Shown here one piece after another: positions 2,836 to 22,138 of a DNA stretch of 32,000 nucleotides. Source of the DNA: Clostridia bacterium (lineage in GTDB: Bacteria; Bacillota; Clostridia; Oscillospirales; Acutalibacteraceae); assembly GCA_017409845.1 (NCBI GenBank), contig JAFQRY010000017.1, positions 46,171 through 78,170 on the forward strand, given 5' to 3'. A program made the translations under genes and the position numbers. Below the pieces are notes generated by a model that was not told the DNA's origin, ran no database searches, and was given only the letters and a program-made list of their open reading frames with translations. The number at the start of each line of letters is the position of its first letter. Position 1 is the stretch's first letter.

Positions 2836-4383
2836 ATGTTTGTTGTTACAAGCAATCAGATGTATCAGGCGGAATGCAATGCTGTCAAAAGAGGCATTTC
2901 CTTCCCTCAGTTAATGGAAAACGCAGGTCAGGCCTGTGCTAAAATAATAAAGAAACAATTCAATATCAGCCGTGAAAGCAAAAAGGATGTTCTTGTTATC
3001 TGCGGAAAGGGCAAAAACGGAGGCGACGGCTTCGTTATTGCACGGAAGCTCTGGGAATACGGTGCGGATGTTACCGTTATGCTTGCCTGCGGAGAGCCTA
3101 AAGCCCAGGATGCAAGGGATATGTTTTCGCTTGTTGAGGCGGCAGGAATTGATATCGTTCGTTATGATAACAATCTGACCGTTCTCAAAAGATTTTTCGA
3201 AAGAGCGGATATCATTGTCGAATCCGTTTTCGGGACTGGCTTTTCGGGCACTCTCGATCATTCGCTGAGCGTTCTTGCCCAGGCATCAAACGCCTCAAAG
3301 GCACCCGTTATTTCAATTGATGTTCCCGCAGGTACAGACTGCGATAAAGCTGTTGTTCAGGGCACAGCCTTCAGAGCAGATATGACAATTGCAATTTCGG
3401 CATATAAGCCAATACATATTATGAAGCCCTGCAATAAATTCTGCGGCAAAATCATAGTCGCCGACATCGGAATTATTCCTGCCGATTACCGCAATATGGA
3501 TACTCCCCCGTGCTTCACGCTCGGAATAAGCGACATAAAAAACAAGCTTCCGAAAAGGAAGCCCGTTTCAAATAAGGGCACCTACGGTCATGCACTCTGC
3601 GTTTGCGGAAGCATGAAAATGGTCGGTGCGGCTTATCTTTCGGTTACGGGTGCACTGCGGTGCGGAACGGGTCTTGTAACGGCCGCCTTTCCTCAGACAG
3701 CTTATCAGGCACTTGCACCTAAGTTCACCGAGCCGCTGCTTCTCCCTCTTGAGCCTAATTTTGACGGCACATTCGCATTCTCTGCAATAGCCGATGTTAT
3801 TGAGGAAGCCAAAAGAGTAACAGCCGTGCTCATCGGATGCGGCATCGGCTTCAACAAAGACACAACGACTCTCGTTCAGAATCTGATAAAAGAAATAAAA
3901 GTTCCCATGATAATTGATGCAGACGGCATAAATGCCCTGAGCACTAACATAGATATATTGAAAGAAGCTCAGGCACCGGTCATTCTGACTCCTCACCCGG
4001 GAGAAATGAGCCGTCTTTGCGGAAAGAGCGTTGCGGAAATCATTGCAGACCCCGTCGGAATCGCTCAGGAATTCGCTTCAAAGCACGGTGTTACCGTTGT
4101 GCTCAAAACCGCAAACACCGTTGTATGCAATCCCGATGCAGGCGGAATATATATCAACACAACGGGAAATTCGGGGCTTTCAAAAGGCGGAAGCGGCGAC
4201 TTGCTTGCAGGCATGACGGTTTCGTTTGTTGCTCAGGGTATGTCACCGTTTGACGCTTCGGTTTGTGCCGTTTTCCTTCACGGACTTGCCGCCGATGCCG
4301 TTGCACAGAAAACCTCAATGAGAGGAATGCTCCCGACCGATGTGCTCGACTATCTGCCTGAGCTTTTTTCAAAATTTGAATAG
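2836..4383 (+). CDS. nnr: Bifunctional NAD(P)H-hydrate repair enzyme (epimerase / ADP-dependent dehydratase)
   Basis: YjeF-N motif ICGKGKNGGDGFVIARKL and C-terminal kinase-like motif GNSGLSKGGSGDLLAGM. I prefer ATG 2836 (GAGGTGA SD) to the track start at 2788. The gene terminates at TAG 4381..4383. Confidence 0.9.
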   Translation: MFVVTSNQMYQAECNAVKRGISFPQLMENAGQACAKIIKKQFNISRESKKDVLVICGKGKNGGDGFVIARKLWEYGADVTVMLACGEPKAQDARDMFSLVEAAGIDIVRYDNNLTVLKRFFERADIIVESVFGTGFSGTLDHSLSVLAQASNASKAPVISIDVPAGTDCDKAVVQGTAFRADMTIAISAYKPIHIMKPCNKFCGKIIVADIGIIPADYRNMDTPPCFTLGISDIKNKLPKRKPVSNKGTYGHALCVCGSMKMVGAAYLSVTGALRCGTGLVTAAFPQTAYQALAPKFTEPLLLPLEPNFDGTFAFSAIADVIEEAKRVTAVLIGCGIGFNKDTTTLVQNLIKEIKVPMIIDADGINALSTNIDILKEAQAPVILTPHPGEMSRLCGKSVAEIIADPVGIAQEFASKHGVTVVLKTANTVVCNPDAGGIYINTTGNSGLSKGGSGDLLAGMTVSFVAQGMSPFDASVCAVFLHGLAADAVAQKTSMRGMLPTDVLDYLPELFSKFE

Positions 4384-4394
4384 CAGGTGATTTT

Positions 4395-4919
4395 TTGAAA
4401 AAAGCTATTTCCGTTTTTGCCGTTTTGCTTCTGATTATTGCGGCAGGATGTGAAAACCAAAGAATACACGAAACAAAAGAGCCTCCTTCCCTGCCCGAAG
4501 CTTTCACCTCAAAGCTCGGAGTTTCTTATGCCGGCACCGAAATGACCGCTGTTTTAACGCAGAAATCCTCTGAGGAATATGAGCTTCGGATGCTGACTCC
4601 CGAAATTCTCAGTCCGCTTGCTCTTGTCTATAAAGACGGAGTCTGCACGGTCACTTATGACGGACTGAGCTTTGAAACAGATCTTAACCGTTTTCCGCAG
4701 GTTTCATTCGGTGCATTGCTGACGGAAACAATCTCTGCACTCAGAGACGGAATTGACATTCAGACAACATATTCCGACGGAATACAGACCTTCAGGGGCA
4801 CGGGCGAGAGAGGAATTTTCGCCATTACCCGCAACACAGAAACAGGTGCCTTTATTGAGCTTACGGTTGAAGGTGCGGATCTTCATGTTGTATTCACGGA
4901 TTTCAAGGCGATTCAATAA
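4395..4919 (+). CDS. Putative lipoprotein, unknown function
   Basis: TTG start with AGGTGA SD. The N-terminus (L)KKAISVFAVLLLIIAAGC has a hydrophobic signal and a lipobox cysteine. Confidence 0.6.
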   Translation: MKKAISVFAVLLLIIAAGCENQRIHETKEPPSLPEAFTSKLGVSYAGTEMTAVLTQKSSEEYELRMLTPEILSPLALVYKDGVCTVTYDGLSFETDLNRFPQVSFGALLTETISALRDGIDIQTTYSDGIQTFRGTGERGIFAITRNTETGAFIELTVEGADLHVVFTDFKAIQ

Positions 4920-4942
4920 GATACTTAAAAGGACTGAAAAAA

Positions 4943-8815: not shown

Positions 8816-8997
8816 TTCCTCATCTCCGAGATTTTCTACTGTAATTATTTTACCATTTTATTCCCGATATGTAAACCTATATCACAAAAAGTTAATTAAT
8901 TGTTGACATATTACCATATAAATTATATCATTTATTATAATGATTATTATACAGACATCTTATGTTCAATGTCTGCTCAATGAAAGGATATTATCTT

Positions 8998-10452: not shown

Positions 10453-10528
<76 letters not shown>

Positions 10529-10530
10529 AT

Positions 10531-10562
10531 CCCTTGAAACTTAAGGTTTCAAGGGATTTTTC
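10531..10562 (+). terminator. Island-borne terminator behind the reconstituted tRNA-Thr
   Basis: CCCTTGAAAC-ttaag-GTTTCAAGGG followed by ATTTTTC. Confidence 0.7.
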
Positions 10563-10583
10563 TTATGTTTTATGAAATTCATC

Positions 10584-10628
10584 AGACCGCATCCCTAAAT
10601 CGCAATTTTTTAGTAAGGGATGCGGTCT
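10584..10628. promoter_or_regulatory. Perfect 13-bp inverted repeat overlapping the integrase RBS
   Basis: AGACCGCATCCCT (10584..10596) and AGGGATGCGGTCT (10616..10628), separated by a 19-nt loop. The 3' arm contains the AAGGGA SD-like element and ends 4 nt before the int ATG. Confidence 0.45.
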
Positions 10629-10632
10629 AACT

Positions 10633-11565
10633 ATGAGCAGAAAAATCACTATGAACAGGACTGAAAACAAGACTTTTGAACAGGTCTTTTCAATGTTCAT
10701 CACTTCAAGAACGGCAAACGGCGTTTCCGATGCAACAATCAGGAATTATCATCAGCATTTGCACAGTATTTCAAAGTATCTTGACATTCAGATGCCCTTT
10801 GATAAGCTCTCCAAAAGCACCATTGATGATATGATTGTCGCTATGCGAAACTCCAACCTTGCCTACAATTCTATTGCAACCTATGTCAGAGTTGTAAAAA
10901 CTTTTCTTACTTGGTGTAATGAGGAAGGTTTGTCTGATGTTAAAATCAAAGGTCTGAAGGAAAAGGAAACAATCAAAGAAACCTACACCGATGAGGAGCT
11001 TGAAATCCTGTTGGCAAAACCGAAAAAGGACTGTAATTTTTGCGAATACCGTAATTGGGTTATTGTCAATTTTCTCCTCAATAGCGGATGCCGAGCGGCA
11101 ACAATCCGAAACATTCAGAACAGGGATGTTGACCTTCAGCGAAAACAGGTTATCTTCCGACATAATAAGAACGGCAAAATTCAGGTTATCCCCCTTTGTT
11201 CTCTGATGTGTAATATTCTGATTGACTATATGAAAATAAGGCAGGGAGAATCAGAGGATTATCTTTTCTGCGACCAATACGGCAAAATGCTGACCGAGAA
11301 CGGTCTCAGACTTGCCATTGAACGATACAACAAGAAAAGAGGCGTAAGCAAAACAAGCACGCATCTGTTCCGCCACACCTTTGCCCGAAAGTATTTAGTT
11401 GACTGCGGCGGCGATGCCTTTATGCTTCAAAGGCTCTTGGGTCATAGCACTCTGAACATGACAAAGCATTACTGCACAATCTTCGATGCGGATATTTCCA
11501 AGAACTATGACAGAGTTTCTCCTCTTGCTCAGATGCACCAAGAGAAAAAGAAAATAATCAAATGA
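10633..11565 (+). CDS. Tyrosine recombinase / phage-type integrase
   Basis: C-terminal catalytic signature ...SGCRAATIRN..., THLFRHTFARKYL, LLGHSTLNMTKHY (R..HxxR..Y), with an N-terminal SAM-like core-binding region. Confidence 0.9.
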   Translation: MSRKITMNRTENKTFEQVFSMFITSRTANGVSDATIRNYHQHLHSISKYLDIQMPFDKLSKSTIDDMIVAMRNSNLAYNSIATYVRVVKTFLTWCNEEGLSDVKIKGLKEKETIKETYTDEELEILLAKPKKDCNFCEYRNWVIVNFLLNSGCRAATIRNIQNRDVDLQRKQVIFRHNKNGKIQVIPLCSLMCNILIDYMKIRQGESEDYLFCDQYGKMLTENGLRLAIERYNKKRGVSKTSTHLFRHTFARKYLVDCGGDAFMLQRLLGHSTLNMTKHYCTIFDADISKNYDRVSPLAQMHQEKKKIIK

Positions 11566-11574
11566 TATAAAGAA

Positions 11575-11611
11575 AGAAGCAGGAGCTTATCAACTTTCCT
11601 GCTTCTTTTTA
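11575..11611. terminator. Terminator between convergent int and WYL genes
   Basis: AGAAGCAGGA (11575..11584) and TCCTGCTTCT (11597..11606), followed by a T-run. Confidence 0.6.
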
Positions 11612-11652
11612 ATTAGTTTGAAACAACCTTTTTGCTACATTATAAGAACTTT

Positions 11653-12786
11653 TTAACAACTTTTTTTATCGTTATACATATCTCTTATTTTATCCAAATG
11701 AGCCTTATATCCTTCAACCACATGGTCAGGTGCAAGAACTTTTACTTTTTTGCCGAACCCTGCAAGCCAACCGTAAAAAGGTTCGCTTATATCAACCGTT
11801 GTCATAACCGTAAAATAATCTTTGTCGAGCTTAGAATATGATACACCCTTTTTGCCGAATCGTTCAACAACAGCATCCAAAAGGAAGTTTGGAAAACAAA
11901 GAGTGACTACTTCTGTTTTGCCTTTAAACATATTAAATGTTCTTTTTATGAGCGATTCAATATTGGTCTTTTCATATTCTTCTTCGCCCTCTCTTGGTTC
12001 AGATGTAAAACAAACGTCTTTCATCCTGTCAACCCTGTAAATTCTTATCTCTTTGTATTTATCATCAAATCCTAAAAGATAATAATTGCCGTCATTGATA
12101 ACGAGCTTATAAGGACTGACAATATATTTTTCTCCTTTTCTCTGTGCAACCTGATTGTGAAGGTCGTTTATTGAGTTTTTCATATAATGAAAACTTATCT
12201 TTTCGGGTTCGTGCGGTTCGCCGTCATAACTGACACTCATTGCTTCGTAAATAGTTTGAATGTTGTATATCAGAGCGGTATTTGTTGTTTTAGGTCTGTC
12301 GATAACAAACGCATCCGCCTTTATTTTCTTTGCCTGATGAACACTGAGAAATTCACAGGCGGCATCAATCAATCTCTGAGCTTCAGATTCAGAAACAAAT
12401 TTTGCCGAGTTAATGCACTCAGTCATAAGGCGAATATCTTGAAGGCTGAAGTGTCGCTCAGGGATATAAAAGCCTTTGGGATGTTTGTAAAGAATCAATT
12501 TTTCTTCATCGTATTTATCGTTCGCAATTACTTTTACGGCTTCATCAATATCAGAATCGTTTTCAAGCATCCAATTAACTTCATTTATTTCTTCAATATC
12601 TTTGTATATGGAGCGGCGTTCCGCATAAATCTGACAGTTCTCCTGAAGAAAAGCCTCAATCATTTTGCCTGAAGCATAATTATCTTCATCGGTTTCTCTG
12701 AGAAGATACTGAAGAACGATATAAGGCTTCATACGTTGCTTCGGCTTTTTGCCGTGATGCTTATCGGGATGCTTTTTCTCTGCCAT
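11653..12786 (-). CDS. wHTH-WYL-WCX transcriptional regulator (BrxR/CapW-like architecture)
   Basis: N-terminal wHTH (IVLQYLLRETDEDNYASGKMIEAFL...AERRSIYKDIEEI). The WYL-type core is YIVSPYKLVINDGNYYLLGFDDKYKEIRIYRVDRM. The C-terminal end FYGWLAGFGKKVKVLAPDHVVEGYKAHL is typical of WCX domains. AAGGTGA SD. Confidence 0.8.
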   Translation of the reverse strand: MAEKKHPDKHHGKKPKQRMKPYIVLQYLLRETDEDNYASGKMIEAFLQENCQIYAERRSIYKDIEEINEVNWMLENDSDIDEAVKVIANDKYDEEKLILYKHPKGFYIPERHFSLQDIRLMTECINSAKFVSESEAQRLIDAACEFLSVHQAKKIKADAFVIDRPKTTNTALIYNIQTIYEAMSVSYDGEPHEPEKISFHYMKNSINDLHNQVAQRKGEKYIVSPYKLVINDGNYYLLGFDDKYKEIRIYRVDRMKDVCFTSEPREGEEEYEKTNIESLIKRTFNMFKGKTEVVTLCFPNFLLDAVVERFGKKGVSYSKLDKDYFTVMTTVDISEPFYGWLAGFGKKVKVLAPDHVVEGYKAHLDKIRDMYNDKKSC

Positions 12787-12815
12787 AATATCACCTTCTT
12801 GTCTCTGTTGGCGAT

Positions 12816-12844
12816 ATTATAATATATCTCCCAAAAGAAAACAA
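12816..12844 (-). promoter_or_regulatory. Candidate promoter of the WYL regulator gene
   Basis: Minus strand: TTGTTT, 17 nt, TATAAT, about 30 nt upstream of ATG 12786. Confidence 0.4.
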
Positions 12845-12907
12845 GCTTTTGCTTTTGTGTGGTTGATAATAAATTTTACTTGTGTTATGATTTGATAAAT
12901 AAGAGCT

Positions 12908-12936
12908 TTGACAAAAATATTTTTCTATGATAAGAT
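12908..12936 (+). promoter_or_regulatory. Candidate promoter of the nuclease gene
   Basis: TTGACA (12908..12913), 17 nt, TAAGAT (12931..12936) with TG at -15/-14. It is divergent from the WYL promoter. Confidence 0.45.
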
Positions 12937-12955
12937 AATATTGAGGTGGAATATT

Positions 12956-14494
12956 ATGGAATTTATCAAATTTGTTGAACAAATCCCCAACATTACAATT
13001 GCAAAAAGGATTGCTTCTACATATGTTGCTGATTACAGGCGATTAGACCTTGATGAAATAAAATCGTTTTTGATTAAAACCGAAAAGCAATATACTTCAT
13101 ACGATAATATTTCTGCTCGTTTGGATGAGCTTAAACTTGATTCTAATAGAACAGTAAGAATAATTGCACCAATTTTGTTGCGTGATTATTTGCTTGACCA
13201 AGATGATTTTATTTCTTCTTGCAAAGATACTGATTCAGCTATTCTTAATTATGAAAAAGAAATCATCGATGAATCCAACAACTTTGATATTAACAAAATA
13301 TCAAAAGATTTAGCACTGTTTAAATATATGTTAGATACTGCTTGGAATCTTAACGATGATATATCAATAGATGAAAAGAATTTGCTTGAAGCTCTGCGTA
13401 ATTATTTATCAATTACAATCAGAGAACAACAAATTTTAGAAGCAAAGTCGGGAAGATTTCCGAACCTCGAAAATGTTTTGCATACCTTTGACGATATTGA
13501 CACTGCAAGAAAAGTTTTACAATCAAAAGGTTTACTTGCGTGTATAAAGAATTCAGAGGGTGTAATGTGTGATATGATACCTGATGATATAGCAATAGCT
13601 ATTCGTAAATACTATGGTGTCGAAATGCGTTCTTATGGTTATGAGAAATTAATCGATTATGTAATAAAGAAAACCAACAAACAGTATTTGATAGACATAG
13701 TTAAAAAGGCAAGCACCTATTATAAAACTGCAAATATAGAAATATCAAACAATCCAACTGTTCAAGAATTAAAAATTATTATTCAAAAGAAAATTAAGCC
13801 GAGCAATTTGATAGCAGGTTTTTCACCTCGTGATGGTTTGGATGTTTCTATGCTTTCAGCTTGGTGCGGAGATTTAGGTCTTGTTGTATCAGGAGCTAAA
13901 AATATTCTTGTTGACCGAATTATGAAACATTATGATTCTCTGAGACGCATCGAAATAAAAACAGAAGATAAAAGAGAAAAACTTGTTTCTGTTTATATCG
14001 AATTAGCAAAGAGAAATTTAAAGTTTTTGCATTCCAATGATATTATAGAAAAAGATTTACAGTGTGAACACTACTTTGAAGATGCAACAAACTATATATT
14101 TGAAAAAATGTTAATGAATAAACCATTAACATTAACAGGAACTGAACATCCCGACGGTAAATTATCATTTAAAGATAAATACATAATGTGGGATAACAAA
14201 TCAAAAGAATCTCCTGTTAATTTGAAAGACCACATTCAACAGTTTGACAGATATATAAAAACATCAGATAAAGATGTTGTTGTATTTATGGTAATAGCTC
14301 CTGAGTTCACTCCGCAAAGTGTTCAAGAGTGTGTCGATTATTCCTTAAACAACGATACTCAAATTCTGCTTATAACAGCAGAAGAATTAAAGACTGTTGC
14401 TGAATCTTGGGCAAAAAAACACAATGGTGAAATATTCAATTTGGGTTATTTCAAACAGAACGGAAGATTCGACATAAAACTGTTAAATTTATAA
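12956..14494 (+). CDS. 513-aa protein: unknown N-terminal region + SAP motif + C-terminal FokI-like PD-(D/E)xK nuclease domain
   Basis: ATG 12956 with GAGGTGG SD (track start 12908 rejected). The SAP-like motif is LSAWCGDLGLVVSGAKNILVDRIMKHY. The C-terminus reads VYIELAKRN...FEDAT...TEHPDGKLSFKDKYIMWDNKSKE...QQFDRYI...VVVFMVIAPEF...ILLITAEELK. It parallels the FokI cleavage domain as I recall it (YIELIEIARN...KPDGAIY...VIVDTKAY...DEMQRYV...FLFVSGHF...AVLSVEELL). Confidence 0.8.
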   Translation: MEFIKFVEQIPNITIAKRIASTYVADYRRLDLDEIKSFLIKTEKQYTSYDNISARLDELKLDSNRTVRIIAPILLRDYLLDQDDFISSCKDTDSAILNYEKEIIDESNNFDINKISKDLALFKYMLDTAWNLNDDISIDEKNLLEALRNYLSITIREQQILEAKSGRFPNLENVLHTFDDIDTARKVLQSKGLLACIKNSEGVMCDMIPDDIAIAIRKYYGVEMRSYGYEKLIDYVIKKTNKQYLIDIVKKASTYYKTANIEISNNPTVQELKIIIQKKIKPSNLIAGFSPRDGLDVSMLSAWCGDLGLVVSGAKNILVDRIMKHYDSLRRIEIKTEDKREKLVSVYIELAKRNLKFLHSNDIIEKDLQCEHYFEDATNYIFEKMLMNKPLTLTGTEHPDGKLSFKDKYIMWDNKSKESPVNLKDHIQQFDRYIKTSDKDVVVFMVIAPEFTPQSVQECVDYSLNNDTQILLITAEELKTVAESWAKKHNGEIFNLGYFKQNGRFDIKLLNL

Positions 14495-14513
14495 TTTTGA
14501 AAAAATAAGTTTT

Positions 14514-14554
14514 AATCAAAAAATTCCGCATACGTAAGTGTGCGGAATTTTTTC
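14514..14554. terminator. Bidirectional terminator between the nuclease and the serine recombinase
   Basis: CAAAAAA-AATTCCGCA-tacgtaagtg-TGCGGAATT-TTTTT. Confidence 0.7.
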
Positions 14555-14555
14555 A

Positions 14556-15143
14556 TCAGCTCTCCAAAAGAGAAAGATATTTATAAACCGTGTTTCTGCT
14601 CAGACCGCAAACTCTTGCAAACTCTGAAAGATTCAGACTGCCTGATTTGAAAGACGGATAATGCCTGTAAAACACTTGCGGAATCGCATCCGTTGTTGTG
14701 TGCGGTCGCCCGATTTTCGCTCCTTTTGCTTTGGCATTTGCCATTCCTGAACGCACTCTTTCACGTATGATTCTGAGTTCGAGTTCCGCAAACACTCCCG
14801 ACATCTGAATGAAAGCATTTGTCATGGGGTCAATCTGACCGTTTGAACAATCAACCGTAATACTGCCGACAATAACGAGACGGAGCTTATTATCCTTTAC
14901 GGTCTCAATTATTTCACAAAGTTGTTTTGTGCTTCGGGCAAGTCTTGAAACTTCAAGGGTGTAAATTGTGTCTCCTGCCTGAGCCTGTTCCAAGAGGGTT
15001 GAAAGCTCCTGCTTCACAGCACTGTCGCCGTGTTCGTATTCAAGGAATATTTCCGTTGCTCCTGCGGCTTTCAGTTCTTTAACCTGACGAAAAATATCTT
15101 GTTTGCTCTCATTAGTCGAGCAACGTGCATATCCGTAATTCAT
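14556..15143 (-). CDS. Small serine recombinase (resolvase/invertase family)
   Basis: MNYGYARCSTNESKQD (catalytic Ser), EVSRLARS, ELELRIIRERVRSGMANAKAKGAKIGRP, and a C-terminal HTH (LSEFARVCGLSRNTVYKYL). Confidence 0.9.
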   Translation of the reverse strand: MNYGYARCSTNESKQDIFRQVKELKAAGATEIFLEYEHGDSAVKQELSTLLEQAQAGDTIYTLEVSRLARSTKQLCEIIETVKDNKLRLVIVGSITVDCSNGQIDPMTNAFIQMSGVFAELELRIIRERVRSGMANAKAKGAKIGRPHTTTDAIPQVFYRHYPSFKSGSLNLSEFARVCGLSRNTVYKYLSLLES

Positions 15144-15157
15144 GATTTATCTCCTTA

Positions 15158-15424
15158 TCAATCAACAAAGGTGTTGTATGTGAATTTTGCTCCGAGCTTA
15201 AAGCCTGCTATAAAACTGTCTGCGTTGCTCACGCAGAGGAACTCTCCTGACTGTTTTAGATATGTGTCAAAGAGTTCACTCTCGACATCCGTCAGTTTTT
15301 CGGAAAGTTGTTCTTCTGTCTTTGACAATACGGCGAGCTTATTCCTGACCGTTGCTCTAAGCTCCGTTGTGATTTCCTGCGGCTCGATGTTTCCGTAATA
15401 AAATTCTTCGATGATGTGTGTCAT
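15158..15424 (-). CDS. Hypothetical 88-aa protein (resembles the DUF6809-type proteins seen beside recombinases in Clostridia; from memory)
   Basis: Good SD (GAAAGGA). EEFYYGNIEPQE...FIAGFKLGAKF pattern. In an operon with the recombinase. Confidence 0.65.
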   Translation of the reverse strand: MTHIIEEFYYGNIEPQEITTELRATVRNKLAVLSKTEEQLSEKLTDVESELFDTYLKQSGEFLCVSNADSFIAGFKLGAKFTYNTFVD

Positions 15425-15438
15425 AATCTATCCTTTCA

Positions 15439-15462
15439 CCGCCCCACTGTTGCGTGGGGCGG
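15439..15462 (-). promoter_or_regulatory. GC-rich intercistronic stem-loop
   Basis: CCGCCCCAC-tgttgc-GTGGGGCGG between the 91-aa and 88-aa cistrons. There is no T-run, so it is more likely an mRNA processing/stability element than a terminator. Confidence 0.35.
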
Positions 15463-15473
15463 ACTGTCTATTC

Positions 15474-15749
15474 TCAGCAGATTGAGAAGCGGCGGCTGCT
15501 GACCTGCTTTGTGAACTCCTTATACATATCTGCATGGGATTTCTTGAATGATGTTGTATCGAATCTCTGTGAAAGAACTGATGTCCAACGGATGATGTAA
15601 GCTCCTGCTTCAAGTTCCTCGGTGTTCTGTTCAAGCATCTCTGCTTTGAGTGCCTCTCTGATTGCCTCTGCTTCTGCCTTTGCATCCTCGATGATTGCTT
15701 CCCACTCTGCGAGAGCCTCGATTTTTCTTACGATTTCGTTGTTTGACAT
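15474..15749 (-). CDS. Hypothetical 91-aa protein, predicted coiled-coil N-terminus
   Basis: AGGAGA SD. EALAEWEAIIEDAKAEAEAIREALKAEM helix, then the conserved-looking IIRWTSVLSQRFDTTSFKK...SSRRFSI tail common in Clostridial mobile elements (recollection). Confidence 0.65.
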   Translation of the reverse strand: MSNNEIVRKIEALAEWEAIIEDAKAEAEAIREALKAEMLEQNTEELEAGAYIIRWTSVLSQRFDTTSFKKSHADMYKEFTKQVSSRRFSIC

Positions 15750-15806
15750 GGTTGTTATCTCCTTTGTTCTGTTGTTTTGATGTGTTGTTGTTTATCAACT
15801 GTACTC

Positions 15807-15835
15807 ATTATACTACGAAATTCGTAGTTTGTCAA
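15807..15835 (-). promoter_or_regulatory. Consensus sigma-A promoter for the 91-aa/88-aa/recombinase operon
   Basis: Minus strand: TTGACA (15830..15835), 17 nt, TATAAT (15807..15812). The spacer contains the palindrome TACGAA-A-TTCGTA. Confidence 0.65.
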
Positions 15836-15910
15836 TACGTTTTTCGTAATTTCTTTACGAATTTCGAAACTTTTTTTCGTTTTGCGTATTGATTTATTAC
15901 GAATTTCGTG
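15814..15910. promoter_or_regulatory. Operator array: TACGAA-N-TTCGTA palindromes
   Basis: 15814..15826 TACGAAATTCGTA, 15836..15848 TACGTTTTTCGTA (degenerate), 15856..15868 TACGAATTTCGAA, 15898..15910 TACGAATTTCGTG. Two of them sit inside the promoter spacers. Confidence 0.55.
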
Positions 15911-15917
15911 ATACAAT
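15889..15917 (+). promoter_or_regulatory. Sigma-A promoter of the XRE regulator gene
   Basis: TTGATT (15889..15894), 17 nt, TACAAT (15912..15917). An operator half-palindrome lies in the spacer. Confidence 0.6.
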
Positions 15918-15941
15918 CATCCAAAAGGAAGGTGCAATAAA

Positions 15942-16157
15942 ATGATAAGATTCAAAGTAAAGGTTCGTCTTGCCGAATGCAACATGACCCAAAAGGAATT
16001 AGCAGAAAAAACAGGCATCAGACCGCCGACTGTATCGGCAATTTGCGTGGGAACGGTCAAGCATTTGCCGATTGATGCACTTGACAAAATGTGTGATGTC
16101 CTCGATTGTCAGCCTGCCGACCTCATGGAGTATGTAAAAGACCCCGATGCTCAGTAA
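15942..16157 (+). CDS. XRE-family helix-turn-helix transcriptional regulator (Cro/CI-like)
   Basis: 71 aa. MTQKELAEKTGIRPPTVSAICVG...LDKMCDVLDCQPADLMEY is a classic HTH_XRE. GGAAGGTG SD. Confidence 0.85.
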   Translation: MIRFKVKVRLAECNMTQKELAEKTGIRPPTVSAICVGTVKHLPIDALDKMCDVLDCQPADLMEYVKDPDAQ

Positions 16158-16430
16158 AGTGTGTTTCGAGTTTCTTGAACAAATAACGGCGATTTTTGTG
16201 CGGAATACACCCGATTTTTGCCGAGCTTAAAATGTGAAGGAAAGCAGTTGTTTTTCTGAACAGGGGTCAGGGGGTATATTTCGGGAGAATCAAAAACACT
16301 TTCGCCCTTTGCGGAATTGCGTGGCTTGTTCTCCGTCTGAATGTGATTTTTGTTTCGGATTACGGTTTATCCCGACCGCAAATGATAGAATGATTATTTC
16401 TCCGTCAAACGAACCAAAAGGAATATAAAC

Positions 16431-16477
16431 GAAAAAATACGGCAAACCGTGAGATTGTCTCTCTTGGTTTGCCGTAT
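16431..16477 (-). terminator. Terminator of the amber-interrupted minus-strand operon
   Basis: ATACGGCAAACC (16437..16448) and GGTTTGCCGTAT (16466..16477). On the minus strand it is followed by TTTTTTC. Confidence 0.55.
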
Positions 16478-16479
16478 TG

Positions 16480-16614
16480 TCATTTCCAATCCTTGAATAT
16501 TTCATCAAGTGCCATATCGAGTTCGGTTTTCATGCTCTTTTGCATAAAGGCAAGAATTTCCGCCTCGATTATGTTTTTCTTTTTCTTCTTCTTTTTGTCT
16601 TTTGGATTCGACAC
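16480..16614 (-). CDS. Possible 44-aa lysine-rich small protein (below ORF-track cutoff)
   Basis: GTG start 9 nt after a GAGGTG SD. (M)SNPKDKKKKKKKNIIEAEILAFMQKSMKTELDMALDEIFKDWK, TGA stop just before the terminator. Confidence 0.35.
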   Translation of the reverse strand: MSNPKDKKKKKKKNIIEAEILAFMQKSMKTELDMALDEIFKDWK

Positions 16615-16616
16615 CG

Positions 16617-16802
16617 TTATTTCACCTCACTTGTAAAGATGAATTGAACAGTCTCAGATTCTTCCGAATCCTGTAATGAGTTGAAGAAATTATCTCTCTG
16701 TTCTCTATAGTTTTCTATTGCAGATTTGCCGTTCATTTGATAATAAAACAAATCAGGAACTTTGCCCTATGCTCTGTTAAACTCCAATAAATCTTTATTC
16801 AT
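16617..16802 (-). pseudogene. 61-codon ORF interrupted by in-frame TAG at codon 12 (pseudogene under code 11, or amber read-through)
   Basis: The ATG overlaps the upstream TGA (ATGA). MNKDLLEFNRA-TAG(16767..16769)-GKVPDLFYYQMNGKSAIENYREQRDNFFNSLQDSEESETVQFIFTSEVK-TAA. Confidence 0.45.
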
Positions 16803-17236
16803 ATATATTCTCCTTCCATAATATCATCAAGGGATATATTCAATGCACCCCTGTTGACCGTATAACTTCTCCAATTTTCCTCTTTTGGAATCTGAGTGTT
16901 CAGCGGCGGCTAATACAGGCGGATGAAATATCCTTCTCTTTCTCCGATTTCTTCTTCGATTTCTGCTCTTGTTTTGCTCTTGGCGGTGTAAAGAACATGG
17001 AATCTGACGGAATAGTTCCGTCTGTTAGCCTCGGCAAGAACCTTGTATTTGTTCTCTTTTGGATTACCCATTGAAGCCCAATGTTCCGCCATTCGGTATA
17101 GAATATCTTTGCTTTTACCGATATAAACAATTTTATTGTTGACGGTTATTGAATAAACCCCCGAACACTAAAACTTTTTACTCCATTCTTGCTCTATGTA
17201 TTTGTTGTATATGTTCTGTATGTGTAAATTACTCAT
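16799..17236 (-). pseudogene. GIY-YIG nuclease-domain gene with two in-frame TAG codons
   Basis: AAAGGAGA SD. MSNLHIQNIYNKYIEQEWSKKF-TAG(17168..17170)-CSGVYSITVNNKIVYIGKSKDILYRMAEHW...EIGEREGYFIRLY-TAG(16910..16912)-PPLNTQIPKEENW...-TGA. The GVY...VYIG and E..I....P.LN elements of GIY-YIG lie on either side of the second TAG. The track shows only the 60-aa fragment 16910..17092. Confidence 0.7.
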
Positions 17237-17251
17237 ATTCATTCTCCTTTA

Positions 17252-17728
17252 TTAAAATTTAAAATTACCGTGTTCGTCTGTTAAACTCCCACTTACTTTT
17301 GGATTCTTTATATTGTTATAATTTATATTATTCGAGCTTATAATTTTCCCTATATTATTATGCGTATTTTCAATAACCCCTGCTGAGGTGTATTCAGAAT
17401 TTGAAGGGGTATATTCATTGTCGGGGGAAGGGGTATTTTCAATATCCCTCTCCGCACTTTTATAAATCGCATCATAATCAACGATGATTTCGCCTTGCTG
17501 ACCGTTTTCGCTTGGCTTGTGGATTATCCAACCTTTTTCAATCAGCTTTTTTCTTGCACTCTTATACGTTGTTTCTGACATTCCGCATCTGTTCATGACC
17601 GTTGCCTCAGGAACAGCAAAACTGCCGTTATCTGCGTTTCCTGTCAGAAATAATATCAGTTTCAGCTAAGCTCCTTCTTTGCCTGTCAGACCGTTAAATA
17701 TTATTGATTCAAGGTGATTCGTTCTCAT
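17252..17728 (-). pseudogene. wHTH DNA-binding protein (replication-initiator/replisome-organizer-like N-terminus) with in-frame TAG at codon 21
   Basis: MRTNHLESIIFNGLTGKEGA-TAG(17666..17668)-LKLILFLTGNADNGSFAVPEATVMNRCGMSETTYKSARKKLIEKGWI... The L.G.E..LKL.LFL....F.....I....GMS..TY..A...L.EKGWI pattern is continuous across the TAG. The track shows only 17252..17596. Confidence 0.7.
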
Positions 17729-17765
17729 TGCCATTCCCCACTTTTTATCCCTGTTTTTTTCTCCA

Positions 17766-17945
17766 TTAGCCCTCAGTATCGGTGCCTGAATAAAAACGCC
17801 CATAACCGCAAATCCTCCACTGTTCGCAAATAAATCTGATATACTGACTTGTATTCATGTGATATTTTCTTGCCTACTCTTGGATTGCTTCCTTTTCTTT
17901 TTCGGTTAAGCGAAGGTCAATTTTTTTATTTTTTATAGTCTTCAT
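17766..17945 (-). pseudogene. Ribbon-helix-helix (MobC/CopG-like) protein gene with in-frame TAG
   Basis: AAGGAGAG SD. MKTIKNKKIDLRLTEKEKEAIQE-TAG(17874..17876)-ARKYHMNTSQYIRFICEQWRICGYGRFYSGTDTEG-TAA. The beta-strand, helix 1 and helix 2 of an RHH span the TAG. An alternative in-frame ATG is at 17996. Confidence 0.65.
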
Positions 17946-18015
17946 ATTATCTCTCCTTTTACTTGTAAATTTTCTTTGAAATGAATTATCAGACATTGTC
18001 CTACCTTCTAAATAT

Positions 18016-18044
18016 ATTATACAAAAATTTTTTGTTAAAATCAA
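18016..18044 (-). promoter_or_regulatory. Consensus promoter of the amber-interrupted operon
   Basis: Minus strand: TTGATT (18039..18044), 17 nt, TATAAT (18016..18021). Confidence 0.55.
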
Positions 18045-18050
18045 AAAAGA

Positions 18051-18098
18051 GCGGTCGCCGCAAACAAAAGCACCGCTGAACTCGATTGAATTCAGCGG
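18051..18098 (-). terminator. Tandem terminator hairpins after the paralog operon
   Basis: On the minus strand, CCGCTGAA-loop-TTCAGCGG (18073..18098) is followed by TGCTTTTGTTT. Then GCGG-cga-CCGC (18051..18061) is followed by TCTTTTTT. Confidence 0.5.
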
Positions 18099-18135
18099 CG
18101 GACTTGCTTTATTAAAATACATGGAGTTGTTCCTT

Positions 18136-18651
18136 TCAGGCGGCAGGGTCAACTGTTTCATTTTCTTCAGTTGCGTTATCGTTTTCTGCAACTGCGTTAT
18201 CGATTTTTATAACTGCGTTATCTTTTTCCTCTTGGACTTCATCAGAGTTTTTGGCAACAGTCGGCATACCGTAATTTACGATTTCAGGATATTTCTTCAA
18301 AAACCAATTTTTAATTTCAGGATAACGGTATGCTTTTGAATGACATTCGCTGATAAAAAGCTTATCATCAAGTTCTTTAAGAACGGCATCTCTTGTTTCA
18401 ACAGGCTCAAACCTTTTGATATATTCTTTCATATAATCATAACTTAAACCTTTATAGTGTTCCTGATTGTTGTTAGTATTTATATCTTCACGAACTTCTA
18501 TCTTATAAGTCGGAAAACTCCTTGTATATTCAACGAGCATTTTAAACTCTTTGTTTTTGGGACTTCTAGCCTTTTCGTCAAACCATTTGTAAAGGATGAT
18601 TTTATTGTTTGCGTGGTCAAATCTTGCAGGATTCTTTCTTGCCTTAGCCAT
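18136..18651 (-). CDS. Hypothetical protein, paralog B (171 aa) with C-terminal heptad DNAV repeats
   Basis: GAAAGGAAGG SD. It shares FDHANNKI...YKIEVRE...YDYMKEYIKR...IKNWFLKKYPE with the upstream gene. Confidence 0.75.
   Translation of the reverse strand: MAKARKNPARFDHANNKIILYKWFDEKARSPKNKEFKMLVEYTRSFPTYKIEVREDINTNNNQEHYKGLSYDYMKEYIKRFEPVETRDAVLKELDDKLFISECHSKAYRYPEIKNWFLKKYPEIVNYGMPTVAKNSDEVQEEKDNAVIKIDNAVAENDNATEENETVDPAA
18169..18231. repeat. 3 x 21-bp tandem repeat (core A-A/G-C/T-TGCGTTATC)
   Basis: Units at 18169, 18190 and 18211. They encode KDNAVIK/IDNAVAE/NDNATEE at the 3' end of paralog B. Confidence 0.7.
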
Positions 18652-18674
18652 AATTATTTGCCTTCCTTTCTTAA

Positions 18675-19076
18675 TTAAGCCGCATCATTGATTTTCTTGA
18701 GTTCGGGGTATTGCTCATAGAACCAAGTTTTGATATCGTGGAATGATTCAGCTGAAGTCTTGTTATCCTTATCGACTTTTAAGCCTCTCTTAACAAGAAA
18801 CTCATTCATAATTTCACCATTCGAATCGTGCTTTGCAATATACTTTGCCATAATTTCAAACGAGATTCTATTTGAATTTCTTCTGCTCTGAGTTCTAACC
18901 ACAACTCTATAATCAGAGAACTTTGACATAAGGTCTTCGAGAACTAAATATTCTTCTGTGCCGTATTTTCCTGATGCCTTGTGAAACTGCTTTGAAACGG
19001 TGATTGTCTTGTTTGCGTGGTCGATTGTGAGGTTGTTTGCAAGGTCGATTGAAGTTTTCTTAATAGTATTTTTCAT
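18675..19076 (-). CDS. Hypothetical protein, paralog A (133 aa)
   Basis: GAAAGGAAAA SD. IDHANKTITVSKQF...YRVVVRT...FEIMAKYIAKH...IKTWFYEQYPE parallels paralog B. Confidence 0.75.
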   Translation of the reverse strand: MKNTIKKTSIDLANNLTIDHANKTITVSKQFHKASGKYGTEEYLVLEDLMSKFSDYRVVVRTQSRRNSNRISFEIMAKYIAKHDSNGEIMNEFLVKRGLKVDKDNKTSAESFHDIKTWFYEQYPELKKINDAA

Positions 19077-19280
19077 AATAATTTTCCTTTCAGCGTCGGT
19101 CGCTACCCATTATTTTTAAAATTATTCAGCGGTAAGTCGCTACCTTATTTCAGCACTTCAGGTTTCACCGTTTGCCTCTTGGTTTCGTTCACTCCTTTCA
19201 GGCGTTTTGTTTTGGTGTGTTCCCCTCTGCTGTGTCTACAGTATATCACGCAACCACAATTTATCAGTCGTTATAAATGC

Positions 19281-19328
19281 AAAAAACAAGAAAGATACAA
19301 AGCTTTTAAAAAAAGTTGTATCTTTCTT
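19281..19328 (-). terminator. Insulating terminator upstream of the paralog-operon promoter
   Basis: AAGAAAGATACAA (19288..19300) and TTGTATCTTTCTT (19316..19328). On the minus strand it is followed by GTTTTTT. Confidence 0.5.
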
Positions 19329-19395
19329 CTTAAATAGTTGTTATTAGGTTGCTATAAAGGCTCATAAATGTTGTTAAAAACTTATTACATACCTG

Positions 19396-19424
19396 TTGAT
19401 TTTATAATATAATTGTTTTATACT
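19396..19424 (+). promoter_or_regulatory. Outward-facing near-consensus promoter at the right island end
   Basis: TTGATT (19396..19401), 17 nt, TATACT (19419..19424), pointing at attR. Confidence 0.5.
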
Positions 19425-19561
19425 ATTATTGATTTAGAGATGAGGTCTGAGTTAGTATGAAACAAGACCTCTACATAATTAAGATTCCTAAAACTTGTTT
19501 AGTGTCAAGGGGTTGTTGGGGGTATCGTCTCCAAAACAAGACCGTTTTACGGTCTTGTGTG

Positions 19562-19607
19562 CTTGGTAAGGATGAGGTCGGCGGTTCAAGTCCGCCTAGC
19601 AGCTCCA
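19562..19607 (+). repeat. attR core: displaced original 3' end of tRNA-Thr (46-bp DR)
   Basis: Identical to 10483..10528. There is no matching 5' acceptor, D arm or anticodon-stem strand upstream, so it is not a tRNA gene. Confidence 0.9.
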
Positions 19608-19785: not shown

Positions 19786-21453
19786 ATGAAATCAATAACC
19801 GCATTTTTTATTTCAATTGCATTATTTTTTCTGAGCATTTTTACTCCGGAATTACCTGCACCGAAAAGTGATGCGGAGCTTGAACAAATCGCATCAATAT
19901 GTCAGAAGCACGAGGTTGGTGACAAGCTTTATGTTATTGACGTTTCCGCTTTAAAAGAAGAGGGTGCAAAGCACATGGCAATCGCTCTTCAGGGCATTGT
20001 TGCAAAAACAGAGCCCTGCATCTTCATCCGCAACAACTCTTACAGCAACAACTATCTTGACATGGCTGCGGAAAGCGGAATTGAAGTTGTTTTCAATGAT
20101 GAAAGCGGAAATCCGTGGACTCTCCCCGCCCTCCTCAACAAATTCAAATCTCATATAGGCGACTCCGGATATGTTCTTTACAGAGCAAGCGAAAAGGCTG
20201 AAGGTCTTAACGCCGCAACCAACCTTTCCGCTCTCTACGGCTGGCTTCCCGTGCCCGAAAATCTTGAGCAGCTTGCGATTGATGCAGGACTTACTCTGAA
20301 AGAAGATTTTTCCGATGATACATATAATCTGCTGTTTCAGTGGAATTTCTTTGAAAAGCACAAGGAAGAATTCAACTACGGTGCAGTTATGAGCCTCAGA
20401 TATTCTGCCGAAGGTCTGCGTGACCTTGCAATTCAGCAGGGATTCTATACATTCTATATTGATGATGATGAGGACACAAATCTTCTCAGAGGAAGGGTTA
20501 TGGACTATGCGGGTGACAATGTTCCCGTGCTCGGATGGGTCAAATATGAGGTTGCGTTTGTCAGACAGGCATCTGAAAAGGGTAACATCGCAATCCCCTC
20601 GGACCATAGTCATAATCTGAGCTATCTTTCATCATTTGAATGCGAAATTCCTCAACAGAAGCATATTGCAAAGGAATATACCGATGAAACAAAGCATTAC
20701 TGTGCTCTTGTTATGAGTGACGGCGATAACATGCAATGGATTCAGAACGGCTATTCCGAATTTTATCAGAAGCAGGCTCTTGAAAACCGTTTTCCCGTGA
20801 CATGGTCATTTCCTCCCCTGCTTCAGGAATTTTCATCCGCAACTGTAAATCAGGTTTATTCCGATGCAAGTGAAAACGATTATTTCATCGCAGGCGTTTC
20901 GGGTGCAGGCTATATCCATCCCACCGAATACCCGTTTAAGGCTCTCGCAGGATTTACAGACCTCACAGCAATTTCAATGAAGCGAAGCAATCTTGAATAT
21001 GTGCAGATTCTTGACGGAACTCCCGAGAACGAATATGAAGAAAAGGTTCTCACCGACAGACTTGAATATTACGCAAGATATAACAGCATCAAAGGCGGCG
21101 TTGTCAGTCTTGACCCCGACCGCTACGCAGGCGGTGAAGGCAGAATCTGGTTTGTTAACGACAAGCCCTTCATCACCTACCGTCTTTCTCTCTGGCACCC
21201 CGACGGTGAAGGTGCAACGATGACAAACGAATGGCTTGACAGTCAGGCAGCAATCGTCAACAGCTACCCTGCCGATATAAACTCAATCAACGGCTACAGC
21301 GTTATCAATATTCATCCATGGACAGTCAGCATAGAGAATCTTGCATATTTCGTAAGTCAGCTTGATGATGACATCGTTCTTGTTAATCTTGATGAACTTA
21401 TGGCTATGATTGAGAAGAATGTGCCTCATCAGAATGCAAAACCGGAGAATTAA
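19786..21453 (+). CDS. Secreted/membrane-anchored GxGYxYP-family putative glycoside hydrolase
   Basis: AAGGAGA SD at ATG 19786 (track start 19675 rejected). N-terminal signal/TM MKSITAFFISIALFFLSIF. The motif VSGAGYIHPTEYP approximates GxGYxYP. Confidence 0.7.
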   Translation: MKSITAFFISIALFFLSIFTPELPAPKSDAELEQIASICQKHEVGDKLYVIDVSALKEEGAKHMAIALQGIVAKTEPCIFIRNNSYSNNYLDMAAESGIEVVFNDESGNPWTLPALLNKFKSHIGDSGYVLYRASEKAEGLNAATNLSALYGWLPVPENLEQLAIDAGLTLKEDFSDDTYNLLFQWNFFEKHKEEFNYGAVMSLRYSAEGLRDLAIQQGFYTFYIDDDEDTNLLRGRVMDYAGDNVPVLGWVKYEVAFVRQASEKGNIAIPSDHSHNLSYLSSFECEIPQQKHIAKEYTDETKHYCALVMSDGDNMQWIQNGYSEFYQKQALENRFPVTWSFPPLLQEFSSATVNQVYSDASENDYFIAGVSGAGYIHPTEYPFKALAGFTDLTAISMKRSNLEYVQILDGTPENEYEEKVLTDRLEYYARYNSIKGGVVSLDPDRYAGGEGRIWFVNDKPFITYRLSLWHPDGEGATMTNEWLDSQAAIVNSYPADINSINGYSVINIHPWTVSIENLAYFVSQLDDDIVLVNLDELMAMIEKNVPHQNAKPEN

Positions 21454-21454
21454 C

Positions 21455-22138
21455 ATGAAAACCGAACTCAATATAATAGCTCACATCCGCACCGATTTCA
21501 CCTCAAAATTCGGTATTCCCCGTCAGAGCGGACTTGTTGACGAGCTTGAAGCAACAATAATATTTGAACCCGCATACCGCAATCCCGATGCACTCAGAGG
21601 TCTTGATGAATACACTCATCTCTGGCTTCTGTGGCAGTTTTCTGAGTGCGTTGACAAGGAATGGACCCCTACCGTTCGCCCTCCGAGACTTGGCGGCAAC
21701 AAAAGAATGGGCGTTTTTGCAACCCGTTCCCCATTCAGACCCAACCCTATCGGTCTTTCCTGCGTAAAGCTGCTCGGAATCGAAAAAACAGAAAAATATG
21801 GCTTTGTTATCCGTGTTTCGGGTGCGGATTTGCTTGACGGCACTCCGATTTATGATATCAAACCCTATCTCCCCTATGTTGACTCACATCCCGATGCAAG
21901 CAACGGCTTCGCTCTTGATGAAAAAGAAGGAAGGCTTGAGGTTGAAATCCCGGAAGAAATCATAAAAATAATACCGCCCGAAAAGCAGGCGGCATTGATG
22001 GCTGTTCTTGCTCAGGATCCGAGACCGGGTTATCAGGATGACCCCGAAAGAATCTACGGCATTGAATTTGCGGGGTTTGATATCAGGTTTAAGGTTGATA
22101 ACGGTTTGCTTTCTGTTGTTGAAATAAGGCTTATATAG
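21455..22138 (+). CDS. trmO: tRNA (t6A37-N6)-methyltransferase TrmO/TsaA family
   Basis: FGIPRQSG, GVFATRSPFRPNPIGLS and DGTPIYDIKPY motifs. ATG 21455 with GGAGA SD. Terminates at TAG 22136..22138. Confidence 0.85.
   Translation: MKTELNIIAHIRTDFTSKFGIPRQSGLVDELEATIIFEPAYRNPDALRGLDEYTHLWLLWQFSECVDKEWTPTVRPPRLGGNKRMGVFATRSPFRPNPIGLSCVKLLGIEKTEKYGFVIRVSGADLLDGTPIYDIKPYLPYVDSHPDASNGFALDEKEGRLEVEIPEEIIKIIPPEKQAALMAVLAQDPRPGYQDDPERIYGIEFAGFDIRFKVDNGLLSVVEIRLI

Follow-up and report, generated by a model that had tools for sequence, protein, structure and literature searches.

An amber-recoded operon in a family of gut Oscillospirales islands, and its possible control by TAG-recoded phages

The window analyzed here is a 32,000-nucleotide stretch of contig JAFQRY010000017.1 from a Clostridia bacterium (assembly GCA_017409845.1). 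It contains a 9.1 kb island of low GC content (10529-19607), which is inserted at a tRNA-Thr(GGT) gene and bounded by two 100% identical copies of a 46-bp direct repeat (10483-10528 and 19562-19607). On its minus strand the island carries an operon of five tightly packed cistrons running from a promoter to a terminator, and four of the five are open only when TAG is read through (Table 1). An earlier reading of the bare sequence (hereafter, the original prediction) had placed five in-frame TAG (amber) codons in these four genes, and had proposed that translation of this module, as part of a satellite-like island, hinges on amber suppression, possibly with a TAG-recoding helper phage present. 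As an alternative, it had suggested that the module was acquired from a TAG-reassigned donor and is silent in its present host.

Translation of the minus strand confirmed all five TAGs at the predicted positions, and the four genes contain neither an in-frame TAA or TGA nor a frameshift. The predicted promoter was recovered by a promoter scan as TTGATT-17-TATAAT (18044-18016), with a conserved ATATTTAGAAGGT after the -10 hexamer and a motif match at 18003 (minus strand), and the predicted terminator (16431-16477) forms a hairpin (-28.3 kcal/mol, z = -8.2) with a U-run behind it. Pfam upheld the domains assigned to the first three products, namely a NikA-like ribbon-helix-helix (RHH) protein, a protein of the helix-turn-helix (HTH) family HTH_36, and a GIY-YIG nuclease. 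The RHH protein also resembles NCBIfam MbpA (1.7e-6, below the cut-off), the HTH_36 product matches a replication initiation protein (1.4e-10) or DnaD-like loader in PHROGs, and the GIY-YIG product scores 28.8 bits against PF01541, for which the cut-off is 22.6. Two predicted details stood only in part. All island cistrons do stop at TAA or TGA, but there are 14 of them rather than 15; and the early position claimed for most of the TAGs does not extend to that of the HTH_36 gene, which is codon 46 if translation starts at ATG 17803. The host of the element uses the standard code, as had been surmised: two of its genes in the window, 2788-4383 and trmO (21410-22138), terminate at TAG, and its long open reading frames (ORFs) there have no internal TAG.

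Table 1. Features of the island in window coordinates (@ = TAG; aa, amino acids)
Feature	Position	Strand	Evidence or context
Operon promoter, -35 TTGATT (18044-18039), -10 TATAAT (18021-18016)	18003..18050	-	Promoter scan
NikA/MbpA-like ribbon-helix-helix protein, 59 aa, one TAG	17766..17945	-	Pfam NikA-like 6.5e-9
TAG of RHH gene	17876-17874	-	EAIQE@ARKYH
HTH_36 replication-initiator/DnaD-like protein, 183 aa, one TAG	17252..17803	-	Pfam HTH_36 2.4e-6
TAG of HTH_36 gene	17668-17666	-	GKEGA@LKLIL
GIY-YIG nuclease, 145 aa, two TAGs	16799..17236	-	Pfam GIY-YIG 1.6e-6; PHROGs endonuclease
TAG of GIY-YIG gene, codon 23	17170-17168	-	SKKF@CSGVY
TAG of GIY-YIG gene, codon 109	16912-16910	-	IRLY@PPLNTQ
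61-aa protein, one TAG	16617..16802	-	Translation
TAG of 61-aa gene, codon 12	16769-16767	-	FNRA@GKVPD
Fifth cistron, 44-aa Lys-rich protein, without TAG	16480..16614	-	ORF list; conserved in L001-L004
Operon intrinsic terminator	16431..16477	-	Fold and U-run
Terminator between upstream TAG-free gene pair and operon	18071..18100	-	13-bp stem and T-run
Two paralogous TAG-free genes, 171 aa (18136-18651) and 133 aa (18675-19076)	18136..19076	-	
XRE/Cro-type HTH regulator, convergent with operon, TAG-free	15942..16157	+	Pfam HTH_26 1.1e-19
91-aa protein, phrog_6244, like C-terminal part of RecE-like proteins, TAG-free	15474..15749	-	PHROGs 2.6e-14
DUF6809 protein, 88 aa, TAG-free	15158..15424	-	Pfam DUF6809 2.1e-20
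Serine recombinase/resolvase, 195 aa, TAG-free	14556..15143	-	Pfam Resolvase 3.8e-29
Variable cargo gene, 528-aa ORF, FokI-type cleavage domain, TAG-free	12908..14494	+	
WYL/WCX-domain regulator, 377 aa, TAG-free	11653..12786	-	Pfam WYL 1.7e-12 and WCX; PADLOC WYL 1.9e-25
Tyrosine integrase, 310 aa, TAG-free	10633..11565	+	Pfam Phage_integrase 1.3e-25
attL, 3' end of host tRNA-Thr(GGT) (gene 10453-10528)	10483..10528	+	ARAGORN and Rfam
attR, second 46-bp repeat copy	19562..19607	+	

Homologues of the window GIY-YIG protein were gathered by back-translated searches, and 95 copies of the gene were analyzed. The related loci, designated by L numbers, comprise 11 from species-representative genomes (all Clostridia/Oscillospirales metagenome-assembled genomes from human and ruminant guts), 80 from metagenomes (the best 80 of 188 confirmed relatives), and three from two IMG/VR contigs. 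One to four in-frame TAGs are present in 94 of the 95 copies, which derive from independent assemblies. In total, the stops within these copies amount to 185 TAG versus three TAA and one TGA, and there are no frameshifts. The four TAA and TGA codons all map to the last (C-terminal) third of the alignment. The TAAs are near its end, and some of the four may be true stops. The sole non-TAG stop well inside a homologue is a TGA at 1427 of L007, at the site of a Trp that is conserved in the PKEE(N/D)W of the other sequences; a genuine lesion, an error of sequencing, or some other cause may lie behind it.

When 77 distinct GIY-YIG proteins were aligned over 146 columns with TAG read as Gln, TAG was found in 25 of the columns. 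The VYIGKS motif, the R, the E, and the N of the family are invariant. So is the Gln of LNTQIPKEE, where 55 proteins have Q, 22 have TAG, and none has any other residue. Because this column holds only Q or TAG, TAG is best equated with Gln. Column 51 has Q 40, E 14, and TAG 20, and the other TAG-rich columns are mostly Q with some E or K. Gln at such sites is the residue that, according to the original prediction, would fit the known TAG recoding in phages. Pyrrolysine, the other amino acid to be considered, is suggested by the label "tRNA-Pyl" that ARAGORN applies to any CUA anticodon. However, we consider its chances close to nil, given that TAG aligns with Gln (the invariant Gln included) and not with Lys in particular, that the loci showed no pyl genes, and that the phage tRNA(CUA)s described below have ordinary cloverleaves, with a Gln-type D-arm in L106.

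The possibility that the stops reflect pseudogene decay, or sequencing or assembly error, has nothing in its favor beyond the stop codons being there, and is scarcely conceivable. Three independent assemblies (L001-L003) have exactly the five TAGs of the window, and TAGs are identical between independent assemblies from different animals. The same five TAGs in three assemblies and a family-wide ratio of 185:4 among 95 independent copies go far beyond chance. The original prediction had raised the question of whether TAG positions are conserved in related islands; they are among these close relatives, but across the family the sites turn over. Among relatives with 87-95% identity, several sites have TAG in one sequence and CAG in another. 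The TAG of the 61-aa gene is kept in L001-L003 and is Q in L004, codon 109 of the GIY-YIG gene is CAG in L004 and L119, and the HTH_36 TAG is kept in L001-L004. Between the window and L004, the four TAG-bearing genes have ratios of nonsynonymous to synonymous substitution rates (dN/dS) of 0.17, 0.18, 0.12, and 0.09, similar to the 0.07-0.13 of their TAG-free neighbors. Values of 0.09-0.18 across the TAG-bearing genes denote purifying selection, which extends over the TAGs and past them, and therefore argue against decay, which the original prediction had also judged unlikely. Taken together, the alignment, the TAG/CAG exchanges, and the dN/dS values indicate that TAG is a Gln codon in genes that are fully translated somewhere, and on these comparisons we regard a code 15-type recoding (TAG to Gln) of the island operon as close to certain.

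This recoding is confined to the operon. Tallied gene by gene over unique sequences, the operon genes contain 228 TAG versus 1008 CAG/CAA codons, whereas the integrase, resolvase, regulators, cargo, and other non-operon genes contain 3 TAG versus 1457 Gln codons (Fisher p ~1e-77; Table 2). Within the window, no island gene outside the operon has an in-frame TAG. As a terminator, TAG is rare everywhere in the element genes and is uninformative alone. Judged by its codon usage, the element is written in two codes, with TAG meaning Gln in one operon and the standard code in the remainder.

Table 2. Use of TAG among Gln-type codons, by gene (unique sequences only)
Gene	TAG/(TAG+CAG+CAA)	Sequences with TAG
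GIY-YIG	0.26	79/80
Small first gene, coiled-coil form	0.26	36/44
Small first gene, RHH form	0.32	5/5
61-aa gene	0.18	8/10
HTH_36	0.04	15/52
Integrase	0.001 (1 TAG vs 776 Gln codons)	1/50
Paralogous pair	0.004 (1 TAG vs 222 Gln codons)	1/55
WYL	0.006	1/16
Resolvase	0	0/23
91-aa gene	0	0/27
XRE	0	0/11

The window element belongs to a widespread island family of gut Oscillospirales. Its elements span 4.8-11 kb between direct repeats of 25-78 bp, most of which are tRNA 3' ends. In the smallest elements, the operon is accompanied by little more than an integrase, one cargo gene, and a small HTH gene. The TAG-bearing operon forms the shared, syntenic core of all elements, including the 4.8-kb ones. 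These observations bear on the alternative offered by the original prediction, in which the module would be silent, dead cargo from a TAG-reassigned donor. The module is indeed untranslatable under the standard code, but this explanation is very improbable: its genes are under selection (dN/dS 0.09-0.18), TAG sites have been gained and lost across the family with the frames left intact, the module is the part that every element shares, and the same elements retain a TAG-free, standard-code part. Nor are the copies recent duplicates of one dead sequence, as GIY-YIG identities within the family go down to 41%.

A more distant relative is pRGI00117 (HG796263.1, L095), a 7,167-bp circular "plasmid" recorded as "uncultured bacterium". 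Its GIY-YIG homologue is 38% identical to that of the island and, like the islands, it has a block with in-frame TAGs in both the GIY-YIG and an HTH_36-like gene, behind the same type of promoter. Unlike the islands, it is a free circle without an integrase, and it has a Rep gene of its own that is TAG-free. Eight genes of pRGI00117, located at 3688-7167 and across the origin, contain between one and four in-frame TAGs each, including one for a terS-like HTH protein and one for a 167-aa protein with four TAGs; in the deposited record, the recoded genes are annotated as small fragments. The same happens in protein collections, where homologues retrieved from NCBI, JGI, and MGnify (P0062, P0059, and P0116) are fragments cut at the TAGs, whereas those retrieved from ENA and Logan span the full length and have Q where the TAGs are. 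Standard-code annotation therefore splits these genes. The DNA encoding P0003 (L119) gives no such protein under translation table 11, so that this protein was evidently called with TAG as Gln.

Full decoding of the operon would call for a tRNA that reads TAG. ARAGORN found no tRNA(CUA) in the window, where Rfam gives just two host tRNAs, and none in 72 related loci including their flanks (~700 kb of island loci with host flanks). Likewise, no release-factor or aminoacyl-tRNA synthetase genes were seen in the island loci. One explanation would need no phage at all: a host suppressor, or leaky TAG stops, could keep a toxic module at a low level or tie it to the state of the host. It draws on the facts that the tRNA scan was confined to the loci, that the promoter hexamers are of the sigma-70 type, and that there is a mild bias in the base after TAG, which is C in 36% of cases compared with 21% after CAG/CAA. 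A C in this position is taken to favor read-through. We nevertheless think this explanation unlikely. Host genes end at TAG, the scanned loci hold no tRNA(CUA), and no fixed read-through context was found around the TAGs. Furthermore, many of the genes have 2-4 TAGs, so that the product of spontaneous read-through would be negligible, and the exclusive promoter link to suppressor-bearing phages, to which we now turn, would be left unexplained.

The link came from the IMG/VR contig L093 (see below) and was followed with the 19-mer TATAATATATATAGAAAGT, which was searched with up to two mismatches (<=2) in 700 kb of island loci and 280 kb of phage loci. Of 43 matches in the island loci, 41 are at the promoter of the TAG operon, usually with an upstream TTGAyTTT and an A-rich spacer, two are elsewhere inside islands, and none is in host flanks. 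The phage loci yielded 53 matches, located upstream of early genes and tRNA clusters. When ten islands were compared with the phage loci by an unbiased blastn, similarity was limited to the operon promoter (island positions 7474-7522, matching L107 and L109) and the tRNA att sites. The motif-bearing phages are themselves TAG-recoded, with ORFs that contain 10-23 in-frame TAGs, and have arrays of 25 or more tRNAs. A promoter common to the islands and to large TAG-recoded phages thus backs the helper-phage version of the original prediction.

When IMG/VR was scanned with the motif alone, at least 120 stretches were obtained, the majority on contigs of 45-400 kb. Among the 323 tRNAs encoded by 120 such stretches, ten have the anticodon CUA, about as many as there are tRNA-Gln(UUG). 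L123 carries on one strand, in this order, the motif promoter, a small ORF, and a tRNA(CUA) with U1, A72, and G73-CCA. The tRNA(CUA)s of L106, L123, and L110 all have U1 and A72 in ordinary cloverleaves, G73 is found in L106 and L123, and the D-arm of the L106 suppressor is of the Gln type. The arrays of L098-type phages (L102-L104, L111, and L112; ~25 tRNAs) have no CUA anticodon, and a suppressor of the L098 lineage surfaced only via the motif scan, in L123. None of the small IMG/VR contigs with the promoter motif carries the GIY-YIG gene.

Phage and island sequences meet directly in L093 (IMGVR_UViG_3300045988_073130, 96 kb), whose phage half is a sister of L123 (the same contig as L100). 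Here, phage DNA switches to island DNA at 8935-8972, inside the shared promoter. The phage part (~9 kb) is 99.97% identical to the 114-kb phage contig L098, and the island part (~1.9 kb) is 97.7% identical to the chromosomal island L052. L093 could be a genuine recombinant of phage and island, or else the assembly may have created a chimera at a repeat of ~30 bp.

Three observations concern the same loci. First, an inverted repeat, AGAAAGT-N13-ACTTTCT, lies just downstream of the shared promoter in L042 (6960-6990), and at the same place in L052 and L093. It begins the island transcripts of this subgroup, is absent from the phage copies, and may function as a 5' stem-loop or as an operator. 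Second, a tmRNA gene (tag peptide DNDYFENYLAA) is located inside the recoded-phage tRNA array of L112 (1911-2226). Third, free-standing genes resembling I-TevI-type GIY-YIG homing endonucleases occur between phage tRNAs (L106, 7664-8389 and 10539-11177; L103, 10943-11722); they carry in-frame TAGs and are not close kin of the island nuclease.

Based on the codon and promoter comparisons, we think it likely that the operon is translationally locked and that it is unlocked by a tRNA-Gln(CUA) supplied by a phage. In an uninfected, standard-code cell, the operon would yield only truncated N-terminal peptides, because the element has no suppressor tRNA and the host terminates at TAG. Entry of a tRNA-Gln(CUA) would then allow synthesis of the full-length initiator, nuclease, and small proteins. 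Such a tRNA would most likely come from one of the large TAG-recoded phages that carry tRNA arrays. The operon promoter is of the same type as those of the early genes and tRNA arrays of these phages, amber suppressors included, so that the operon mRNA and its decoding tRNA would appear together. The unlocked operon might let the island replicate and spread as a satellite, or turn its nuclease against the phage, or do both. We infer that the island probably switches on only upon infection by a TAG-recoded phage, and are moderately confident that the operon depends on a phage. That the genetic code itself is the phage sensor, through which the unlocked operon would hijack the phage as a satellite or kill it as a defense, is a proposal that we favor by a little.

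Several points weigh against this interpretation. The support for it comes from sequence comparison, and suppression, induction, excision, replication, and packaging are putative events. The suppressor scan was confined to the loci and their flanks, which makes a host-encoded suppressor possible, and the motif-bearing phages may infect other bacteria. As the -35/-10 hexamers are of the ordinary sigma-70 type, the host could transcribe the operon without a phage, and the likeness between the promoters could stem from recombination instead of co-regulation. If L093 is a chimera, it may show only that both partners were present in one sample. The island GIY-YIG gene was found on only two IMG/VR contigs, the junction contig L093 and 3300024268_002441 (L012/L094). 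The prophage beside the island in L094 is written in the standard code, as is L096, the phage whose integrase is closest. Finally, terS, capsid-remodelling or size genes, and pac/cos features were not recognized in the islands with Pfam and PHROGs.

The 21-kb contig L012/L094 was considered as a recoded helper and rejected, since the adjoining prophage is written in the standard code; at L094 1868-10589 the integrase end of the island abuts the prophage end, so that the two elements seem to share one insertion region, and the prophage genes (for a GH25-like lysin and proteins of 606, 489, and 1048 aa) are TAG-free. Kinship with Topaz-type recoded prophages via the integrase was also rejected, as the only close IMG/VR relative is the standard-code phage L096, whose capsid and terminase genes are TAG-free. 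In the GenBank phage collection, tblastn with a distant GIY-YIG relative (Q at the TAG sites) gave no match.

A related idea dispenses with hitch-hiking: the island would be a code-sensing anti-phage device, in which the unlocked GIY-YIG nuclease destroys the phage or, by abortive infection, the infected cell. The nuclease is the most consistently locked gene, with TAG in 79 of 80 unique sequences and at 26% of its Gln-type codons (compared with 15 of 52 sequences for the initiator), and this near-universal locking is compatible with a helper-damaging satellite and also with a pure defense device. The absence of recognizable packaging or capsid genes, the defense-like cargo (the FokI-domain protein and the WYL regulator), and the restriction of the island in IMG/VR to the L093 junction and the prophage-adjoining L012/L094 contig would also suit such a device. 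However, the locked operon also contains a replication initiator and, in the window, a mobilization-type RHH protein of the NikA/MbpA kind, whilst the integrase, the att sites, and the free circular relative fit an element that excises and replicates. Moreover, satellites such as PLE combine both roles, PLE deploying a nuclease against its helper. We therefore hold a device devoted to defense alone to be possible but rather doubtful.

The proposed phage-unlocked operon has counterparts in several known systems. TAG-recoded phages infect Oscillospiraceae and keep their integrase TAG-free, and a Topaz prophage has been found at tRNA-Thr in this family (Borges et al., bioRxiv 10.1101/2021.08.26.457843). 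Code 15 gut phages include the crAss-like, Lak, Garnet, Topaz, Agate, Sapphire, and Jade clades, and the surveys of recoded phages ascribe recoding to phage-encoded suppressor tRNAs (bioRxiv 10.1101/2021.08.26.457843; Peters et al., PMC9523058). Like these phages, the islands use TAG as Gln in a standard-code host, with a TAG-free integrase (in the phages, lysogeny genes too) and a recoded functional block, and recoding in the phages is read as a translational switch, as proposed here for the islands. Unlike the phages, the islands measure just 4.8-11 kb, are devoid of structural and lysis genes, and have no tRNA(CUA) that we could find in their loci. Their recoded block is a replication and nuclease operon, the decoding of which must depend on another genome.

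The islands also resemble the SaPI/PICI, P4, PLE, and minimalist PICMI satellites: all are small, have an integrase with att sites that in some cases lie at tRNA genes, carry a repressor-type regulator as well as a replication module of their own, and lack virion genes. The window element has this satellite-type layout, with integrase, att sites, XRE regulator, and HTH_36 initiator, and no capsid, tail, terminase, or lysin gene was found in the island by Pfam and PHROGs. The activity of known satellites is tied to a specific phage, whereas helper dependence is proposed here from sequence. Known satellites sense their helper via protein-protein de-repression or helper transcription factors; in contrast, the key proposed for the islands is the suppressor tRNA of the helper, that is, the genetic code. 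A further difference from known satellites is that no terS, capsid-size, or pac/cos functions were identified in the islands. The tyrosine integrase at a tRNA gene, the serine recombinase, the NikA/MbpA-like RHH protein, the small replication module, and the variable cargo are equally reminiscent of integrative mobilizable elements of Firmicutes. Unlike those, the island has no relaxase: its proteins matched no relaxase family in Pfam, PHROGs, or NCBIfam, and the NikA/MbpA-like accessory RHH protein is the only mobilization-type product. We know of no described integrative mobilizable element in which in-frame TAGs are a feature.

In engineered amber dependence, as used in conditional amber mutants and genetic-firewall biocontainment, TAG is placed in essential or toxic genes, and their expression needs a supplied suppressor tRNA. 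The island arrangement may be viewed as a natural counterpart of such biocontainment; unlike the engineered systems, the islands are natural, polymorphic, and evolving, and the proposed key is viral. Our searches of full-text literature brought up no account of a recoded satellite, island, or plasmid, and the islands would appear to join two known kinds of element, recoded phages and satellites. If the interpretation is correct, this would be the first satellite or defense element keyed to the codon reassignment of its helper. Stop-codon recoding in phages has so far been read as a private timing device. The islands suggest that the recoded state of infected cells is also read as a signal by other mobile elements, which, if true, would be a new route of phage recognition for a satellite or defense system and would mean that recoding shapes interactions between mobile elements beyond the timing of phage genes.

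The remaining island genes are all TAG-free. Two gene assignments were corrected, in that the integrase is 10633-11565, whereas 11653-12786 encodes the WYL protein. Together with the cargo gene, the latter occupies a variable slot between the resolvase and the integrase (11653-14494) that looks like defense cargo. The FokI-type domain (PF09254, FokI_cleav_dom) comes from a precomputed Pfam record for a 512-aa cargo product on the source contig, and neither the cargo protein nor the resolvase had a match in PADLOC. In relatives, the cargo gene 12908-14494 is missing or replaced: L119 has a 1030-aa gene in the slot, and L001 is without both the 528-aa cargo gene and DUF6809.

At the far end of the island, ARAGORN called a 96-nt "tRNA-Lys(UUU)" at 19512-19607. 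This candidate was rejected, as it consists of attR (the 3' 46 nt of tRNA-Thr) and island DNA that pairs with the repeat; the segment does not match the Rfam tRNA model and gives just a weak tmRNA-like match. The two paralogous genes upstream of the operon have no match in Pfam, PHROGs, or NCBIfam, but both are present in most islands by tblastn. The C-terminus of the 171-aa paralogue is encoded by a 21-bp tandem repeat (18158-18199).

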